IMG/VR virus record: IMGVR_UViG_3300035520_000529
Span: 44,210-108,209 of that record
Strand: one strand, 5' to 3'
Source: a virus
Taxonomy: Duplodnaviria; Caudoviricetes
DNA: 64,000 nt
Shown piece by piece: positions 3,267 through 62,796 of the stretch. A program made the translations under genes and the position numbers. The first letter of the stretch is position 1. Each line of letters starts with the position of its first letter. Below the pieces are notes generated by a model. That model saw only the letters and a list, made by a program, of their open reading frames with translations, ran no database searches and was not told the DNA's origin.

Positions 3267-4424
3267 GTGAAAAATAAAATTATGCTATATACTTTAATGC
3301 ACCAAAATATTGAAGTTTTCGACCTAACTTTAGATGAAGATTCGGGTACGATAGTAGAGGTTGGAAAAGTTCACAATCCCGAACATATTCCTATAGGTGT
3401 GTGCTTTGATGGGCAGAACATACCTAAAAGAGAAGTTATACACTGGTGGAATGGTAGGTCTATACCTGTTAGCCGTTCGGGGTTGAGAAACTTCATGTTG
3501 AAGTTAGACCTTACTGACGTCAACGTGTGGGTAAAAAAGAGCCTAGGTTTGAGTCTATCCGATCAGTATTGGATTAAGCCTAAAGATAGTTCAATACACT
3601 GGGAAGATGTGAACTTTTTCGACAACAACTTTTCGGAAGATATCGGCAAACTGTTAATGGGTTACAAGAGTGATTACGCAGTCTACGATTTTAAATCTCC
3701 TGATAGCACGTCTAATGGTTGGCTAAAAAAACGTTGGACTATCATAGATGGAAAGAGATATTTAATCAAAGGTAGCTCTACACTCTTTCAAGAGCCTTAC
3801 AATGAGGTTATAGCTTCACACATTGCAGAAACTTTAGGCATACGCCATCAACCTTACAGACTAATCTACAACGAAAATAAGCCTTACTGCCAGTGTGAAA
3901 ACTTTGTAACTCGTGATACCGAACTTGTGGATGCTAGTGCTATTGTGCATAGTGTAGAAAGACTTCCTAATGAGAGTAAGTTTGAACACTTTAAACGTAG
4001 TTGTGAACGTTGGAACATCCCAAACTTTAGTGAGCGTATGGACGAAATGTTAGTGCTAGATTACATTATAGCCAACCAAGATAGACACTTCGGAAACTTT
4101 GGGTTTATCCGAGACGTTAACACTTTGGAGTTCCTAGACTTTGCACCTATATTCGATTGCGGAACTTCATTACGTTATGACACACCCACTAAATATATTG
4201 ATATCAGCCTTGACGTTGAGTCACAACCATTCTTAGACACACATTCCCAACAGATAACACTAATCAACGATTGGAGTAAGTTCGACCTATCCAAACTGGG
4301 CAACATCTCCAACTGGATACACAACTTCCTAACCTCGGGAGTAAACTCAATCTTCATAGATGAGGAACGCAGCGAGAAGTTGGCGACACTAGTCGAACGT
4401 AGAATAGACACACTAAAACAGTAG
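3267..4424 (+). CDS. HipA/CtkA-like kinase-domain protein
   Basis: SPDSTSNGWLKKRW, YLIKG, EPYNEVIAS, DYIIANQDRHFGNFG, FAPIFDCG. Confidence 0.8.
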   Translation: MKNKIMLYTLMHQNIEVFDLTLDEDSGTIVEVGKVHNPEHIPIGVCFDGQNIPKREVIHWWNGRSIPVSRSGLRNFMLKLDLTDVNVWVKKSLGLSLSDQYWIKPKDSSIHWEDVNFFDNNFSEDIGKLLMGYKSDYAVYDFKSPDSTSNGWLKKRWTIIDGKRYLIKGSSTLFQEPYNEVIASHIAETLGIRHQPYRLIYNENKPYCQCENFVTRDTELVDASAIVHSVERLPNESKFEHFKRSCERWNIPNFSERMDEMLVLDYIIANQDRHFGNFGFIRDVNTLEFLDFAPIFDCGTSLRYDTPTKYIDISLDVESQPFLDTHSQQITLINDWSKFDLSKLGNISNWIHNFLTSGVNSIFIDEERSEKLATLVERRIDTLKQ

Positions 4425-5718: not shown

Positions 5719-6060
5719 CTATTCCGTATCATTTCGGAACTCTTCCAAAATGCTTTTTAACTTTTTGGGGAGAGGTACTCCCAGTTTGCCTACATTTTCT
5801 GTAATGCTTATTGCCTCGTTGAAGATAGCCCATGTACACACCATCGTGTATAGTACATCCTTGCCAAAATAGATTCTATCAATAGTGGAACACATTACTA
5901 TTATTAGCATGATTAGATACTTTTTGTATAGCCCTTTAGTCATTACAGCACTCTTTAATGTGTGACGTTTGGTGGCTTTTAGTACTCCAGTTAGCACATC
6001 CAAGCAGATAAGCACAAACACTAGGTATATTAGCTTGTTGATAATTAATAAATCGCTCAT
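5719..6060 (-). CDS. Phage holin (toxin secretion/phage lysis holin type)
   Basis: D..TG..KA, hydrophobic segments, NEAISITENVGKLGVPLP; adjacent to endolysin. Confidence 0.88.
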   Translation of the reverse strand: MSDLLIINKLIYLVFVLICLDVLTGVLKATKRHTLKSAVMTKGLYKKYLIMLIIVMCSTIDRIYFGKDVLYTMVCTWAIFNEAISITENVGKLGVPLPKKLKSILEEFRNDTE

Positions 6061-6078: not shown

Positions 6079-6867
6079 TTAGTATGTGTAGTTATACCTT
6101 ATTGTGGCACTAGTTAGAGGTGTGTTGCCAGTGCTACTAATAGAAATATTACTCCATTGAGCTGATGTACCAGCATAATAAACGTTTTTGAGCGAGGTAG
6201 ATAGATAAAAAGCATAGCTATCAATAACAGAAATAGTGTTAGGTATGTATATACTAGTTAAGCTTGTACACTCTGAAAAAACATTTTTTGAAATAGAAGT
6301 AACACCGCTAGGAATCTTTATAGTAACTAAGCTTGTGCAACCATTAAAAGCACCACTACCAATACTTGTAACACCACTGGGAATAACTACACTAGTTAAG
6401 CTTTCACAACTAGAAAAAGTGTTTTGTTTAATGTATGTGACACCATTTGGGATAATTGCATTAGTTAAGCTTTTGCAACCACTAAAAGCATACTCATCAA
6501 TAGAAGTAACTGTGTTAGGTATGTCTATATTAGTTAATTTTGTGCAAGATGCAAAGGCTCTATTACCAATAGAAGTAACACCATTAGGAATAGTTATACT
6601 AGTTAAACATGCATAATTTAAAAAAGCATAACTTCCAATAGAAGTAACACCATCTGGAATATTAGCTTCTATACTAGCACCCGTTAACGTACCGCTACTA
6701 TCAATAGTGTACTCAAAGCCCCCACTAGCATCTATATTTTGCAACTTACTCACAAGGCTATCGAAACTTTCGCTTTTGGAAGCTTCCACATCAAAGGAAT
6801 TAAGCTTGTCTACAAGATCGCCTTTAATGGCAACCAACTTTTCTAAATATTCAGCAATAGTTTGCAT
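6079..6867 (-). CDS. BspA-type (LRR_5) leucine-rich repeat protein, tail/receptor-binding module
   Basis: Repeats of LTSITIPNGVTSIG..AF..C behind an N-terminal helical anchor; last gene of the fibre cluster. Confidence 0.8.
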   Translation of the reverse strand: MQTIAEYLEKLVAIKGDLVDKLNSFDVEASKSESFDSLVSKLQNIDASGGFEYTIDSSGTLTGASIEANIPDGVTSIGSYAFLNYACLTSITIPNGVTSIGNRAFASCTKLTNIDIPNTVTSIDEYAFSGCKSLTNAIIPNGVTYIKQNTFSSCESLTSVVIPSGVTSIGSGAFNGCTSLVTIKIPSGVTSISKNVFSECTSLTSIYIPNTISVIDSYAFYLSTSLKNVYYAGTSAQWSNISISSTGNTPLTSATIRYNYTY

Positions 6868-6870
6868 TAG

Positions 6871-9075
6871 CTACCCTCCATTCACTATATTATCTAATGC
6901 GGATTGCACATCGCCTAGGGTGGTAGTAATATCATCAATAGCGGACTTTACTACCTTATTCTGCACTGCATTGGTAGACGTGTCGCTAAGTGCGGAATCG
7001 AATCCTAATTCTACAGTATTAGACAACTTATTCATGTGACTTTCAAGATAGTTTAACTCATCTACAACAGTAGCAAAACCATTTACAGATTTCAACACAA
7101 AGTTAGTAATAATGTTTTCCTCATCATCTGTAGTTTGATATGCTACATCATAAGTAGTAGATGGATTCAACGTATAGAGGTAACCCTCAATCTTACCAGA
7201 AGACACTGTTAGTAGCTCATCGTTTATGGTTATGGTGTAGTTATCGTCACTAGCAGTAAAAGAGTATTTAACTAGTTTAGTATCCGCATTAGTAATAAAA
7301 GTAGTGTTTTCAGTTTGAGATAGTTTATCTTGAGATAGTAGCACTATGTTCTCATCCTCGGAAACTTCAAAGTCTCCCAAAGTAGATAAGTCAACTTTAG
7401 TTTCCAAAGCAGAATAAACTCCACCACTAGTTACTAAATTTTCACTAAGCCTAGTAGGAGTTTTGTCAATTTCTTTGTCAAACTTGTAATTTAGAAGTTC
7501 CCAACCATTTTCGTTATGGATATAGTACTGAGTAGAACTTTCTGCACCAGTAACTACATAGATAACACCATCAATTATGTCTTTTTTAGGTAGTTCATCC
7601 ACTGCAATCCTTTTTACATAGTCCAAATTGTCTAAAGCTAAGCAATCTATAGTACCCTCAACTGATAGATTACCCATAATGAATGTGTTACCATTCCAGT
7701 CTATGGTTAAAGCGTTTGAACGTGTAATTGTATTCTCATTAGTATCTTCATTAGTTTCTTTAGTGCCATTACCAATAATGAATGCATATTGGTTATTTTC
7801 ATCCGATAGATTATAACGTCCTATAGTGGTTTGTGCTTCACCATTTGCTATAGTTCCAATACCACTACTATGAGAATAGTGTGAAATTGCTTGTGTATTA
7901 TAGCCCTCAGCGTGTGATGATAGACCATTTGCAATACAACCAGTACCCTCAGCATGAGAACCCTCACCTATAGCTTGTGTATAGATGTCTCCCAAGTTAC
8001 CATTATTCTGTGTAGGAATAAAGTAGCCCTCAGAGTGAGAGCCTAAACCCGAAGCTATTGAAGAATATCCCTCAGCATGAGACTGTGCGTTGGTAGATTG
8101 TGTATAGAAGCCCTCCGCATGGGAGTAGTCTCCTAACGCTTTAGAGCCTATTCCCTCAGAGTGGCTGTTATCACCTATAGCAACAGTATGGTAGCCCTCA
8201 GCGTGAGAATGACTACCTATTGCAACAGAACTATTTCCCTCTGAGTGGGTACACGTACCAATAGCATATGTATTAGCACCCTCACTATGTGCATTTGGAG
8301 CAGAGCCATCATTTATACTAGTAATGTCTTCTAATGTAGTACCCCACGTTGTAAGTAGCTCATCGGATATTGTTAAATCGTCAGAAAATCCAGACACTGT
8401 TTTATAACCCTCTGCGTGTGAGTTACTAGAGTGTGTAGTAGTTGAAGCACCCTCAGTATGTGAGGTGTTACCATAGGCAATAGTGTTACTGCCCTCTGCA
8501 TGAGAGTACTTTCCTAGTGCAACGTTTAAGTTTGAATCTGCGTTGTTGCGTTGAGAAACGTTAAAGACTTCTGCTCCAATATTAGCTGTTTTAGATATAC
8601 CACTTACATTATAACTTTTTCCAGTAATATCTGCACCTGCACCATATATAGTACCATCCTCTTTTTCTAGAATGGTAAAATCATCAATTTTTACACCGCC
8701 AAGTGTAGTACTTGTTGCAATTGGTAGAGTGTAAGTATCTACTAGGTCAGTAACTAGTATATATATGTGTTTGTTGTTGGAATTAGCTATTACCAAATCA
8801 ATATATTTATCTCCAATATTATATCCATCTACTGGAGAATTATCTTCGGTACATTCTTCTACTGAACCACTTTCTACTACTAAATCTTTAGGAATGTTTA
8901 TCTTTTCACCGATAGCAACGTCATTGTTATATAATTGATATGTAGTAGAATATCCATCTTCAGCAGTGTCTTGCTTTTTGATAGTATAGTTTATCGTTTC
9001 TAATGAATCTCTTGCTACAGTGTCTCTAATATCTAACTTTTCACCATTTAGATTAATATGCGAAACCCATGACAT
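6871..9075 (-). CDS. Tail fibre with YadA/Hep-Hag-like head repeats
   Basis: About 14-aa S-H-A-E-G repeats, then IIGNG...RSNALTIDWNGN neck; DSALSDTSTNAVQNKVV motif. Confidence 0.78.
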   Translation of the reverse strand: MSWVSHINLNGEKLDIRDTVARDSLETINYTIKKQDTAEDGYSTTYQLYNNDVAIGEKINIPKDLVVESGSVEECTEDNSPVDGYNIGDKYIDLVIANSNNKHIYILVTDLVDTYTLPIATSTTLGGVKIDDFTILEKEDGTIYGAGADITGKSYNVSGISKTANIGAEVFNVSQRNNADSNLNVALGKYSHAEGSNTIAYGNTSHTEGASTTTHSSNSHAEGYKTVSGFSDDLTISDELLTTWGTTLEDITSINDGSAPNAHSEGANTYAIGTCTHSEGNSSVAIGSHSHAEGYHTVAIGDNSHSEGIGSKALGDYSHAEGFYTQSTNAQSHAEGYSSIASGLGSHSEGYFIPTQNNGNLGDIYTQAIGEGSHAEGTGCIANGLSSHAEGYNTQAISHYSHSSGIGTIANGEAQTTIGRYNLSDENNQYAFIIGNGTKETNEDTNENTITRSNALTIDWNGNTFIMGNLSVEGTIDCLALDNLDYVKRIAVDELPKKDIIDGVIYVVTGAESSTQYYIHNENGWELLNYKFDKEIDKTPTRLSENLVTSGGVYSALETKVDLSTLGDFEVSEDENIVLLSQDKLSQTENTTFITNADTKLVKYSFTASDDNYTITINDELLTVSSGKIEGYLYTLNPSTTYDVAYQTTDDEENIITNFVLKSVNGFATVVDELNYLESHMNKLSNTVELGFDSALSDTSTNAVQNKVVKSAIDDITTTLGDVQSALDNIVNGG

Positions 9076-27225: not shown

Positions 27226-27400
27226 CTGATATATAAACTTTATAATTATTTATAAACACTCAAAAAATTATAAGATTATTTCCTTATTCAACGTGTCCGC
27301 TTTGGATTGTATTTCTACAATCTACTCACGCTTGTATGACACTCCAAAGGCGTAAATTCGGCGTTATCAACACCTACATATTAGCATAATCTTGATATTG
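27226..27400 (-). ncRNA. TnpB omegaRNA scaffold / IS607 right end
   Basis: Downstream of tnpB; shares TTCCTTATTCAACGTGTCCGCTTTG and GACACTCCAAAGGC.TAAATTC blocks with 47430-47515, weaker similarity to 55620-55710. Confidence 0.8.
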
Positions 27401-47359: not shown

Positions 47360-47550
47360 CCGTTACTGAAAACTTATAAAAAGTTATAACAACTCTTGAT
47401 TAAGTTACAAAATTTATAACTTTTAGGTTTCATTCCTTATTCAACGTGTCCGCTTTGAGTTTTGTTTCCAAAACCTACTCACACTTGTGTGACACTCCAA
47501 AGGCTTAAATTCCCGACTAACGTATCGGTACATTCGTGTAACACTTGTGT
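47360..47550 (-). ncRNA. TnpB omegaRNA scaffold
   Basis: Conserved blocks shared with 27280-27360. Confidence 0.75.
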
Positions 47551-55552: not shown

Positions 55553-57567
55553 CCGCTACGATAAATACATACAAACTTAAACAAATCTATAATATTTATA
55601 CTATGACGTTCTCACGAAACGTCTTCCTACTTCAACGAGTCCGATTTTGCTAACACATGAGCGTTAAGCTACTTTCGTTTGGTGTAACTCTCCATAGGCT
55701 TAAATTCCCTAGTAGCGATAGGTACACATTAGCATAATCTTTTAAGTGATTCTATGCTAATTGATAGTTTGCTAAATTAATACTTGCATTGAAATCTCTG
55801 TCGGCAACGTAGCCACAAGCATCACAACGATATACTCTGTCTGATAGTTTCAAATCCTTCTTGACGTTTCCACAACAAGAACACATCTTTGAACTTGGAT
55901 AGAACTTATCAGCTTGGACAAACTTAATGCCAAAAGTTTCGCACTTATACTTCATTTGACGTATAAACTCATAAAACCTCTGTTGAGATATTGCCTTAGA
56001 TAGATGTTTATTCTTCAACATACCTTTGACGTTTAAAGACTCCATAACTATGCGAGATGGCTTGGTTTTCACTATCTCGGTAGTAGTTTGGTGCGTGTAA
56101 TCGTTACGGATATCGGTTAGCCTTTTGTGGATAAGTCTAATCTTAGCGTTCTGCCTTTGGACGTTCTTACAATCCTTTAATGGACGTTTCCATATAGGTC
56201 TACGCTTAATATCGTAGCTTTGCGTGTTGTTAATAAGCATCCTTGAGAGCTTTCTCTGCTCTCTTTTCAAACGCTTTTCCAAACTTCTAACACGCTTAGT
56301 CTTATTGATGTTCTTGTAGACCGTTCCATTAGACACAGTCGCTAACTCTTTGACACCTAAGTCTATACCTAAACTTTCACCAGTGAGTTCGTACTCTACC
56401 GCAGAAACCTCATATCCAACAGACAAGTACCAGTACTTTCCGTCATAAGATATTCTAGAATTAGAGTAGCGTTCACCATTCTTTAACTTAGGCAATGGCT
56501 TAGTAGTCTTGACTACACCTAACTTTTCGCCTTGAAAACCATTTTGAACTCTTTTCAAACTCTCATAGTTGACGTAAAAGCTAGGTTTACTCCTATGTTT
56601 AGACTTATATTTTGGCTTTCCTGATATGCCTTTGAAAAACCTTTTAAGAGCGTTATCTGCATCTTTGATAGCTTGTTTCATAACGTTACTACTAACTTCT
56701 TTCAACCATGTGTGGGTAGTAGGCTTTAACTCATTATTAATGTGTTTTCTGACTGCTCCCTCACTAATTGACTTGCTACCAGTTTCACCATTCACAAGGT
56801 ATTCATGATACACTCTTTCGTTCTCCGAAAGGTAGTAGTTGTATGCCCATCGTGAAGTTCCTGCACTTTTCCAAAACAGAGTTTCTTGCTCTTTGGTAGG
56901 TTTTAACCTAATCTTAATTGCTCTTAGCATTATCTCACCTCACTTATTTGATACTTACATTATACCACAAAAGTGACGTAATTACAAGGTTTTTTAGCAA
57001 ACTATTTGTACCTTATTGATACCAAATTTATAGATTCTTTAGTTATATATTTATCTCATTCACATTAGAACGCAACTTCTAATGCAGTCTTTCTGTTACC
57101 AGTAGACCTCTAACGCTTTCACGTTAGCGTAGACTATATCTTCATCTATGATTGAACCATAGAGCCACATTTTTCTTCCGCCATTAGCTTGCGGTTTTAC
57201 TCTCCCTCAAGGAGATAGTCTTTGGAGGTCTTCCATGCCTTTCGGTTTAGGACTTTCCCTGCTAAACACCCATTGTTATGACACTTAGGACTAACGTTTC
57301 CAGTGTGTCACGCATCGCCTTTCACTGGCACTGATTAGTTTTTATTTCACCTTATGCTATCCATACTATTTTTTTGCTTTCGCACCATTCAGCTTATCGT
57401 TTCCAATTACTGTTTAGGTTGTATGACTTTAGGGGTTCAAAGCATTTAACGTGGAGTTTCCACCAGTCGCCCGATGGAAAGGGCTTTCTGTTATATATTT
57501 TCCTTAAAAATATACACAAGTACATATTTGTTTATGCTTGTCTATATTTTTAGTAACAGTTTTGTTA
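55553..57567 (-). mobile_element. Non-autonomous IS607-type IStron (group I intron + tnpB + omegaRNA, no tnpA), 2015 nt
   Basis: CCAAAGACUAU and GAAGAUAUAGUCU core motifs at about 57130-57225, P9 CUAACGU-GAAA-GCGUUAG; GG core (GTTGGG|TAAC, TAGCGG|GAG); removal gives in-frame FLKGYFVG-ENSIDKLGADFIKALM. Confidence 0.88.
55752..56930 (-). CDS. tnpB: TnpB RNA-guided nuclease (IS607 type)
   Basis: GIDLG, VMESL, DRDFNAS, Zn finger; own promoter TTGTAA-17-TATAAT at 56959-56987. Confidence 0.95.
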   Translation of the reverse strand: MLRAIKIRLKPTKEQETLFWKSAGTSRWAYNYYLSENERVYHEYLVNGETGSKSISEGAVRKHINNELKPTTHTWLKEVSSNVMKQAIKDADNALKRFFKGISGKPKYKSKHRSKPSFYVNYESLKRVQNGFQGEKLGVVKTTKPLPKLKNGERYSNSRISYDGKYWYLSVGYEVSAVEYELTGESLGIDLGVKELATVSNGTVYKNINKTKRVRSLEKRLKREQRKLSRMLINNTQSYDIKRRPIWKRPLKDCKNVQRQNAKIRLIHKRLTDIRNDYTHQTTTEIVKTKPSRIVMESLNVKGMLKNKHLSKAISQQRFYEFIRQMKYKCETFGIKFVQADKFYPSSKMCSCCGNVKKDLKLSDRVYRCDACGYVADRDFNASINLANYQLA

Positions 57568-60206: not shown

Positions 60207-60248
60207 AATATAACCCGACCTTTCTAAGATGGTTTTTAATTTATACTT

Positions 60249-60277
60249 ATTATACCATAAATTATATCAGTTGTCAA
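60249..60277 (-). promoter_or_regulatory. Consensus sigmaA promoter, leftward
   Basis: TTGACA-17 nt-TATAAT with extended TG. Confidence 0.85.
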
Positions 60278-61172
60278 TAGTATTTTAAATAAATATTGAT
60301 AAAATAAAAATTTACTATGTTGAATATTTAAGACCTATATCAAATGTTAGTTGGAGAAGATTTACATTAATGTAGTGTATTGAAGTATTAAAATTTAGAC
60401 TTTCAAAGTTTTTCAGATTAAATTTTAATATTTTAAGATATAAACATTAGTTTTAAGCATAGTTTTATTAAATATTTTAATATCTCGTATAGTATTGAAA
60501 ATTGTCAAATATTAACGTTTGATTTAGACAATTTTGAAAGTTAAAGAGGCTTAACTTTCATTTTTATATGGGATATTTTAGAAAATTATAAGGCTATAAG
60601 TAAAAAGATACTATGGAGATGTTAAAGAGTGTAAGCCCAACATATTTAAAAGCATGAAATACGTGTTAAAAAATAGCAATATGTAGTGGCGTAAATAATA
60701 TCTTATTAGTATTATATTGACATGGCATTTCTTGATATCAGTTAAAAATCACGATTGTATGTGATTTTTTAATAGGTTAAAAAGTATATTAAAAATTGAG
60801 AGGTTAGTAAAGGGATGGGTGTGGATTGGTAGTAGATGGGGGAGTTAGTAAGGGGGTTGTATTGAGTTGGTAAGGGCTGATATTGAGTGGTAGTGGGTAG
60901 TATTAGTTAGTAGAAGTAGTTGAAGCACTTGAAATATAGTGGGGTGAATGTTTTTGACTAACTCCCGCCAAAAAATAATACCTCTCTTCAGCAGATTTTT
61001 TAACCTATCCCCGCATTTACGTGCATTATAAAAGGTCAAAAGGTTATGCAATACCCTATACAAAAATACAAGAGAATCACGAAGCATCGACATAAAAAAC
61101 TTTTTTTTTGTACCAATAAACCTATTGTTTTAATAAACGTGTATGTTATAGTATAACCATACTAAACGAAAA

Positions 61173-61250
61173 GACATAACACACAACGCCCACGTATGAC
61201 ATAACACATAACACCCACGTATGACATCCACGTAATACAAACGCCCACGT
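61173..61250 (+). repeat. Short direct-repeat cluster
   Basis: CCCACGTATGACAT x2, AACGCCCACGT x2, CCACGT x4, ACATAACAC x3. Confidence 0.8.
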
Positions 61251-61259
61251 TTTAAAAAA

Positions 61260-61720
61260 CTGATTTTTGTTGTTTGACTGTCAGTAATCCAGTGGGTAAC
61301 ACGAGAATAATAGACTGCGTGCTACATGGTCCAGTCTGAATATCGTGGGTAAATAAGCACAAGTTAATACACGGCGAAACGATAGGAAACCACAGCAAGA
61401 CAGATACATTAGGATCGCAAGAGATTGTCATTCTAATGTTACCAAACTGCAACGTATAGCGAAGCCCGGATGCGATCCCTTAGCCCGACGAACAAGGAAT
61501 GACAATACAAGTAACCGGTTATAAGGGCAACGAGAAACGGTGGGTCTATAAAGAACGGACTGACACTACTGTGACGTACTAAAGAGGTAACCAGATGTTA
61601 ACAAATATATACGCAAACAGTCCAAAAGAGGCGGAAAGAGTCAAGTTAGGCGGGTAATAGCTACAAGAACAGCACTCAAATTACACGCCCGAACCCTCTA
61701 ATACTGTTTGCGTGGGTTGT
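61260..61720 (+). ncRNA. Candidate large structured non-coding RNA
   Basis: ORF-free, GC-elevated, multiple long-range helices and several GNRA-like loops (see findings). Confidence 0.6.
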
Positions 61721-61884
61721 ATAATAGTAATGTTTTGCGGTATAGCTCCAAAAAAAGTTACAACACACATTTTGTGTGTTGTATATGCACATAGGTTCTA
61801 ACTGTGTGCATATACAACGCTCTAAAGCGTGATAAGATTATAAACTATAAACGCCCATAATGGGAAAATTTTGGAGGTATTTTT

Positions 61885-62796
61885 ATGTATAACATTAATT
61901 ACTTTATGACTGAGGCTAATGAACAAATCAACGCTATAACTGTACATAGCAGTAAAAGCGAGGTTTTAACTATCACAACACAACTAGTAACACTAGTTGA
62001 TAACATGATAGGCGTATTTGGCCTACAAGCACCAGTAACCACTAAAGAGGAAGCATCCGCCCTAAATAAGGCTATAGCTAACGCCACAGTAGCAACTGTT
62101 GACCCTAAACTATACGAATTCGAAGACGTTCTTGCAAAGACTAAACTATCTAACTATGTTACAAGCTATGTTGAATACATTAACAATGCTATAACCACAC
62201 ACGTACTATCCCTAATCAATGGTGATGTTGTATCACTAATGAAAGGTAAAGTGTTTGATTATCCAGCACTAAACGATAACATACCACAACTAAAAGTCTA
62301 CAAACGTGTAGAGATTGACACTCAATCTGGACTATTCTGTACTATCAATAATCGTCAATACACCCTAACTATGCTATTCCCTAATGACATAACTTGTGCT
62401 GATACTGTTTCTGCTCTATCTTACGAGCTAACCAGCGAACAATTAGCAGAGGCTACCGCTAAAGCTAACGAGACTTGTTCTAACGAATCCAACACTACCA
62501 ACATAAGCGTTACTGCTAAATTCTACAAGAACGCTATAGGTCAAACTTCCAACAAATACTATAAGTCTATCCTTAATGACCTATGTTGTCACGTAGCTAC
62601 TAAGTTAATGGGTGTTACTGACGTTAAGCCTAAACTATTCAACGCTATATGTCTAGAATGGTTAGCAAGTAAAGCTTGCCGTGATACTAAACTAGTAGGC
62701 TTTAAGGCAAGGGCTTCCTTTGATGCTGACTCATACCTATATCAATACGTTAAGACTGCTATGTTTGAACAAGACAACTTTGCTAAAATTCACTAA
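61885..62796 (+). CDS. Hypothetical protein
   Basis: 303-aa ORF with GGAGG RBS. Confidence 0.75.
   Translation: MYNINYFMTEANEQINAITVHSSKSEVLTITTQLVTLVDNMIGVFGLQAPVTTKEEASALNKAIANATVATVDPKLYEFEDVLAKTKLSNYVTSYVEYINNAITTHVLSLINGDVVSLMKGKVFDYPALNDNIPQLKVYKRVEIDTQSGLFCTINNRQYTLTMLFPNDITCADTVSALSYELTSEQLAEATAKANETCSNESNTTNISVTAKFYKNAIGQTSNKYYKSILNDLCCHVATKLMGVTDVKPKLFNAICLEWLASKACRDTKLVGFKARASFDADSYLYQYVKTAMFEQDNFAKIH

Follow-up and report, generated by a model that had tools for sequence, protein, structure and literature searches.

A putative structured RNA in the predicted long untranslated leader of a distant SPbeta-like phage

Does the gene-free stretch at the start of the rightward arm of this phage hold a structured RNA and, if so, of which kind? 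The analyzed IMG/VR phage contig comprises 108,209 bp with a GC content of 33%, and its final 64 kb are here referred to as the window. Judged by its terminase and its YonO-type RNA polymerase (RdRP fold) the phage is a distant SPbeta-like phage of Bacillota. A gap of 1,678 bp without genes (60207-61884) encloses the region 61260-61720, which the initial annotation had proposed to be a large ornate non-coding RNA. Left of the gap, the leftward arm carries a gene of 225 aa, a Gam/Gp157-like gene and the polymerase gene, followed by the terminase gene and the genes for structural proteins. On its other side, the rightward arm opens with a gene (ATG at 61885) for a 303-aa product without known family. 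In the most probable reading, the region 61260-61720 folds within a long untranslated leader RNA whose family has not yet been described.

As initially annotated, 61260-61720 contained no credible ORF. The longest stop-to-stop frame (in 61160-61760) had 75 aa, and the whole gap was without genes. A spurious frame of 66 aa gave no match when used as a query against the protein collection. A decayed gene was rejected as an explanation, since a tblastn search with every frame of the relatives found nothing in the region beyond the homologous DNA of L002, the nearest relative. A small hydrophobic toxin ORF was rejected as well because the candidate frames lacked a ribosome binding site.

The region was also correctly described as GC-richer than its surroundings (43.6% compared with 33% in the contig); only 0.4% of the 400-nt windows within the 64 kb reach a GC fraction of 0.44. 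The same applies to the sites GATC and CCGG, which are rare elsewhere yet retained here. Approximately 300 GATC would be expected in the 108-kb contig and 10 were observed; two of these, together with two of the three CCGG of the contig, lie within 61413-61515. The two GATC were counted as one event, since both are arms of one 8-bp inverted repeat (Table 1). Further palindromes were scarce in the 108-kb contig (GGCC 1, GCGC 1, CGCG 2), and the avoidance was seen in all relatives too. Avoidance of GATC, CCGG, GGCC, GCGC and CGCG indicates that the phage has been exposed to several restriction systems. In the relatives the leaders are AT-rich (22-36% GC) with zero GATC or CCGG, and therefore GC enrichment and site retention are features of this lineage alone. 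Both suggest a constraint on the sequence.

Known RNA families were searched with cmscan (Rfam 15), as had been recommended. Neither strand of 61150-61740 matched any family, permissive filters and a limit of E<=10 notwithstanding, and there was no match at gathering threshold to any Rfam 15 model, those for ROOL, GOLLD, group I/II introns, RNase P, tmRNA, 6S and self-cleaving ribozymes included. The leaders of the relatives likewise had zero Rfam matches at gathering score. Elsewhere in the window, cmscan found a group I intron, a tRNA and three copies of RAGATH-18. The latter (27280-27350, 47433-47503 and 55624-55698) are each located directly 3' of a TnpB (OrfB_IS605) gene and are consistent with 3' ends of omega-RNAs. 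One of these TnpB/RAGATH-18 elements splits the YonO-like polymerase gene; yonO of phage Goe11 is likewise annotated as two pieces with an ORF in between. In the relative L039 a Hammerhead type II (43.5 bits) and a Pistol ribozyme (61.7 bits) were found at 5841-5918 and 6849-6932, respectively, between small genes of the rightward arm. The window has neither of them at gathering score.

Relatives were gathered by searching proteins with the flanking genes and then looking up the contigs. L002, from sequencing run SRR10148553, showed 87% DNA identity. In L003 (= L029, L030) and L004, here named lineage B, the 303-aa protein was ~42% identical. A third (L039, L040), a fourth (L041) and a fifth lineage (L042, L043) were found by profile search. 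By blastn there were zero DNA matches to catalogued phages, and no related loci were found in viral contigs when the 303-aa protein was used as query. When contigs from viruses, metagenomes and genomes were scanned for conserved words, only chance matches resulted, as judged by BLAST, context or motif re-scan. MT835973 and phage c-st were dropped because of a different layout around the shared genes.

Every contig spanning the locus, from five lineages, had the divergent layout and a gene-free gap of 1.5-1.7 kb. The extended -10 sequence TGtTATAGT given by the initial annotation is present at 61144-61152, where it forms part of the putative promoter P1. Counterparts of P1 were near-consensus and of the sigma-A type, namely TTGACT..TATAAT in L041, TTGCTT..TATAAT in L039, TTGCGT..TGaTATAAT in L003 and TAGACT..TGaTATAAT in L042. 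From P1 to the first gene an ORF-free stretch of 590-970 nt extended across the five lineages. Since gap, promoter and ORF-free stretch are common to all five, the long untranslated leader would be a conserved feature of this phage group. Additionally, the box GGGGTGAATGT at 60941, followed by ATTTTTTAAcC..CCCC..ACGT..TGCAT (60941-61040), was conserved in the five lineages ~150-190 nt upstream of P1. A scan of public collections with a 19-mer of this box gave chance matches only. Another candidate promoter within 61270-61303 was discarded as too weak.

With P1 the region has a predicted promoter of its own upstream, as a free-standing sRNA gene would have. No intrinsic terminator was found on the + strand between 60200 and 61950, and the hairpin at the 3' end of the region is not followed by a U run. 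The lack of a terminator makes the region look like a domain of a leader of ~725 nt, reaching from P1 into the first rightward gene, and not like a free-standing RNA gene.

The sequence of the leader is not conserved between lineages, and similarity of the window to the other lineages was limited to short anchors. The first 360 nt at the 5' side of the element are without close homologue, the contig of L002 beginning only at the position that corresponds to 61625. Where the window has its CCCACGT repeats, near the leader start, L003 and L004 have direct repeats, paired repeats or hairpins of their own, the direct repeats being unrelated. Just after P1, L039 (~4180-4230) has two tandem hairpins with differing stems (GUAAA/UUUAC and GUAG/CUAC) and near-identical loops (GAAUUAG and gGAAUUAGu, respectively).

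The anchors include a bipartite motif, 5'-N5-YAA-GNCN ... 170-250 nt ... NGAN-ACUR-N5-3', in which the pentamers (here named H1) and the tetramers (H2) can pair. It was found once per leader at syntenic places in the window, L003, L004, L039/L040 and L041. The motif was formulated from sequences already known, and four independent lineages carry it; the leaders of L042/L043 are without it. When 216 kb of the phage's own genome (both strands) were searched with a relaxed form of the pattern, one other match was obtained. The two halves read CACAG-CAA-GACA and UGAC-ACUA-CUGUG in the window, UUUAG-UAA-GUCA and UGAU-ACUA-CUAGA in L003, CUUGG-CAA-GUCU and GGAU-ACUA-CUAGG in L039, and CUUAG-CAA-GUCA and UGAU-ACUA-CUAAG in L041. 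H1 was paired at five of five positions in all five sequences, and at positions 1-3 both sides change, the set being too small for R-scape. Covariation among homologues, named in the initial annotation as a check, was thus seen at three of five H1 positions in five sequences, and the interior helices have no homologue. On the + strand one of 45 cells of H1 and H2 was non-standard, compared with nine of 45 on the - strand. The single case is an A.A mismatch in H2 of the window, where three of four positions are paired.

A third helix, H0, encloses H1 and H2. It is present in the unconstrained minimum-energy fold of the window and lies within the best flank duplex in the window, L003 and L004. 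Between the window and L003 a G.U pair is replaced by G-C at one end and a G-C pair by C-G after the 1-nt bulge. The spacing of the helices was near-identical in the window and L003 despite an unalignable intervening sequence: 28 nt in both from the start of H0 to H1 on the 5' side, a span of H1 of 183 and 190 nt, 21 nt in both from H1 to H0 on the 3' side, and 324 and 327 nt from the 3' motif to the ATG, respectively. In L039 and L041 outer helices of other sequence were found at the same place; these carry little weight, since chance alone should yield 7-bp duplexes between flanks of 60 nt.

When the window was aligned with lineage B by MAFFT, the alignments could not be used for a consensus fold. 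For lineage B itself the consensus fold of the whole element reached z -4.1 on the + strand versus -1.5 on the - strand (column shuffles). Forcing H1 and H2 in the window costs ~8 kcal/mol compared with the minimum-energy fold. A covariance model of the lineage B domain (R2) did not significantly match the window, L039 or L041, and a model of the 3' hairpin (R1) matched the window itself and no other lineage. As the covariance models fail across lineages, homology rests on the short anchors and their spacing.

Table 1. Positions of sequence and structure features in and around the region 61260-61720 of the window
Feature	Position	Strand	Description
Promoter P1	61125-61152	+	-35 TTGTTT (61125-61130), 16-nt spacer, extended -10 TGtTATAGT; predicted start ~61160
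Direct repeats	61185-61205, 61210-61230, 61240-61260 (within 61173-61260)	+	core CCCACGT, 25-nt period, start of leader
H0, 5' arm	61363-61370	+	GUUAAUAC; within block TAAATAAsCACAAGTTAATA common to lineage B (BLAST against L003)
Bipartite motif, 5' half	61391-61402	+	H1 CACAG, loop CAA, H2 GACA
Competing hairpin	61406-61415 / 61430-61439	+	starts just upstream of 61412
Interior of H1/H2 domain	61412-61506	+	multi-hairpin; no homologue covers the span
8-bp helix with both GATC	61412-61419 / 61471-61478	+	crosses the 10-bp helix
Perfect 10-bp helix	61424-61433 / 61497-61506	+	interior of H1/H2 domain
CCGG sites	61466 and 61515		second site just outside 61412-61506
Bipartite motif, 3' half	61561-61573	+	H2 UGAC, loop ACUA, H1 CUGUG
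H0, 3' arm	61594-61602	+	G-a-UGUUAAC; 7 bp, 1-nt bulge and 1 bp with 61363-61370
3' hairpin domain	61610-61714	+	12-bp closing stem, AGAGG/CCUCU, GGCGgGUAAU/AUUAcaCGCC
Putative promoter P2	61717-61725	+	TTG-TATAAT, directly after the 3' hairpin; found by eye, missed by consensus scan
5' UTR hairpins	61759-61830 (block about 61755-61835)	+	between P2 and ribosome binding site; outside 61260-61720, same predicted transcript

The folding statistics did not bear out one large ornate fold. The whole region showed no gain in stability over dinucleotide shuffles (+ strand, z -0.66; - strand, z +0.63), and sliding 110-nt windows over 61250-61600 gave nothing notable on either strand (z -2.7 to +1.6). 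The folding energy of 61350-61730 corresponded to z -1.45. Perfect stems of at least 10 bp were in excess, with two observed and 0.04 expected; none of 300 dinucleotide shuffles reached two. All complementary segments listed by the initial annotation could be read from the sequence at their positions. Of these, TGTCAGT/ACTGACA, CACGA/TCGTG and CCCTTA/TAAGGG are at chance level with comparative support absent, and the TGTCAGT/ACTGACA register was dropped in preference for the conserved register of H1 and H2. The proposed pseudoknot and a structured 5' part (61260-61360) found no support either. The 3' hairpin, whose helices had been listed, proved to be the only individually significant element within 61260-61720 (z -3.13). 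The structured RNA originally proposed is thus supported in part, as a + strand RNA outside Rfam; its support comes from H0 and H1/H2, which had not been listed, and from the 3' hairpin, rather than from most of the listed helices. Among the readings of the region, a structured + strand RNA has the best support.

The 3' hairpin has the same stability on either strand. Compared with L002, two of its pairs were changed on both sides (G-C to A-U and C-G to U-A), one was changed on one side and none was broken; 123 of 500 shuffles reached the observed value, a control which is weak with two sequences. This non-coding part is 87% identical to L002, versus a mean of 83% over the shared 2.4 kb, and the 303-aa protein is only 76% identical between the two. 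For L003 and L004 the identity of the leader was 87% versus 80% in the neighbouring stretch. The site of P2 is conserved as well, reading GTTGTATAAT in L002 and GTTGTATAG in L003/L004.

Downstream of P2, the 5' UTR hairpin block gave z -6.93 on the + strand and -4.79 on the - strand. It can form three mutually exclusive hairpins or one long hairpin. The block is identical to L002 save one difference at each edge (61764 and 61796), and the equivalent hairpin in L003/L004 keeps its pairing with an A-U pair replaced by G-C, plus a U.G pair. This block looks like a regulatory 5' UTR switch.

Taken together, a structured RNA outside the known families is probably present, consisting of two parts of a leader transcript, the modules 61363-61602 and 61610-61714. 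We favour a cis-regulatory or processed leader module, with a confidence that is about even. The explanation as a whole, which we give an equal chance of being right or wrong, would be as follows. The region 61260-61720 would be the central part of a structured untranslated leader of ~725 nt. Judged from the promoter, the host RNA polymerase would transcribe rightward from P1 into the first rightward gene (ATG at 61885). Approximately 350 nt of this leader (61363-61714) would fold as two modules. The first is a predicted domain of ~240 nt, in which the nested helices H0, H1 and H2 would join the ends around a multi-hairpin interior that varies between lineages, and the second a predicted extended hairpin of 105 nt that ends at P2. 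The conserved stalk may present the variable interior or let it be excised from the leader; flanking stems serve the excision of other processed RNAs. The module might then influence how the rightward operon is expressed, or act as an RNA of its own. Supporting this explanation, the compared sequences exhibit the non-coding nature of the region, the conservation of promoter and leader architecture, the apparent covariation of H1 and the 3' hairpin and the preference for one strand.

A bolder proposal, which we consider rather improbable, would see here an undescribed family of structured RNAs of 240-350 nt in the early leader of YonO-encoding SPbeta-like phages, within the gap that is syntenic with the packaging-site region of SPbeta. 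Its conserved three-helix stalk with the internal loop YAA/ACUR would display or release a fast-evolving multi-hairpin module that acts in trans, e.g. against host defence or in genome packaging.

Other readings have to be weighed against the leader RNA. Rather unlikely in our view, yet a live rival, is a role of the element as DNA, i.e. as part of a pac region or of a replication or regulatory region in which the repeats are bound by phage proteins and the helices reflect the symmetry of binding sites. In SPbeta, the pac site and the opening point of the genome were mapped to the yonP-yonR gap beside yonO (bioRxiv 10.1101/2021.11.22.469490). The gap studied here is syntenic with it by the YonO polymerase gene, and the gene order of Goe11 agrees. 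Both are divergent gaps beside a YonO-type polymerase gene and upstream of late genes, and both have a C-poor, G-rich block. However, the blocks that resemble the SPbeta gap (the stretch poor in C and rich in G) are located 400-900 nt to the left of the element and upstream of P1, and the SPbeta-like phage Goe11 is without any long leader: its gap is ~960 nt in size, with the promoter directly before the first gene and no leader of 700 nt. The lineage B domain model, the sole covariance model run on the Goe11 gap, had no match there. Direct repeats, the 10-nt palindrome TAACCGGTTA and AT-rich and C-free blocks in our gap fit a DNA role, and so do the retained GATC, since the pac site of phage P1 keeps GATC sites through whose methylation cleavage is controlled. 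The 3' hairpin, with its equal stability on the two strands, would be compatible with DNA symmetry as well, whereas the G.U pairs in H0, H1 and H2 would be mismatches in DNA or on the opposite strand. Together with the strand asymmetry of nine non-standard cells to one, these pairs argue for RNA over DNA symmetry in the three helices. Furthermore, the lineage B fold is strand-specific and a conserved promoter reads into the region.

Unlikely, and somewhat more so, is a non-functional spacer or foreign DNA: a GC-richer fragment that was acquired by the lineage, has not yet lost its restriction sites and forms helices by chance. The GC content and the GATC and CCGG sites, which are unique to this lineage, fit such an origin; they could be a mark of constraint or else of recent import. 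The missing thermodynamic signal across 61260-61600 and the confinement of similarity to short anchors point the same way, but the anchors and their spacing are common to lineage B, and long perfect stems are in excess. In the part shared with L002 the identity of 87% lies above that of the neighbouring stretch and all substitutions preserve the structure, which likewise speaks against a neutral spacer. No trace of a decayed gene was found by tblastn and the genome holds no second copy of the element. Very improbable, finally, is membership in a known large class such as ROOL, GOLLD, group I/II introns, RNase P, tmRNA, 6S or a known ribozyme. The window does carry other structured RNAs, and a relative has Pistol and Hammerhead II ribozymes in the same arm; nevertheless, the Rfam models were negative for the element and for the leaders of the relatives.

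Compared with known phage RNAs, the putative leader RNA shares with ROOL and GOLLD a size of several hundred nt, its non-coding nature, its occurrence in phages of Bacillota and a GC enrichment over an AT-rich genome. ROOL and GOLLD are usually free-standing genes, often adjoining tRNA genes. The element differs from them in having no covariance-model match and in its location in a 5' leader between two promoters and without terminator. The P4 CI RNA, the P1/P7 c4 RNA, HK022 put and lambda nut are likewise structured segments in the untranslated leader of an operon after a host-type promoter. These RNAs have 70-180 nt and known targets or polymerase contacts, whereas no target, processing site or downstream terminator was found for the element. 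By analogy to the leader-derived P4 CI and P1/P7 c4 RNAs, the flanking pairing could permit processing.

To our knowledge, large structured phage RNAs are few and most of them are without known function. If the leader reading is true, a new large structured RNA would be added in the SPbeta-like phages, for which SPbeta in Bacillus subtilis offers a genetically tractable model, even though SPbeta itself seems to be without the element. With its defined internal loop and variable interior, the conserved stalk would be a handle in the search for further members and for a binding partner. That GATC and CCGG survive locally in a purged genome would be an independent and unusual mark of constraint, unless it reflects recent import. 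If instead the DNA reading is true, the region would help to define which signals these phages use for packaging or replication.

Two further features were observed in the gap upstream of P1. A stretch of ~140 nt (60800-60940) is nearly free of C on the + strand, with a GC skew of up to 0.77 and words such as GGG, GTG and TAG; C-poor, G-rich blocks are found at the matching place in L003 and in the yonP-yonR gap of Goe11 (L050, 6620-6830). Additionally, the AT-rich part of the gap contains an inverted repeat (60475-60584) with z -4.8 and -4.6 on the two strands compared with shuffles, which could be an operator or an origin-like element.
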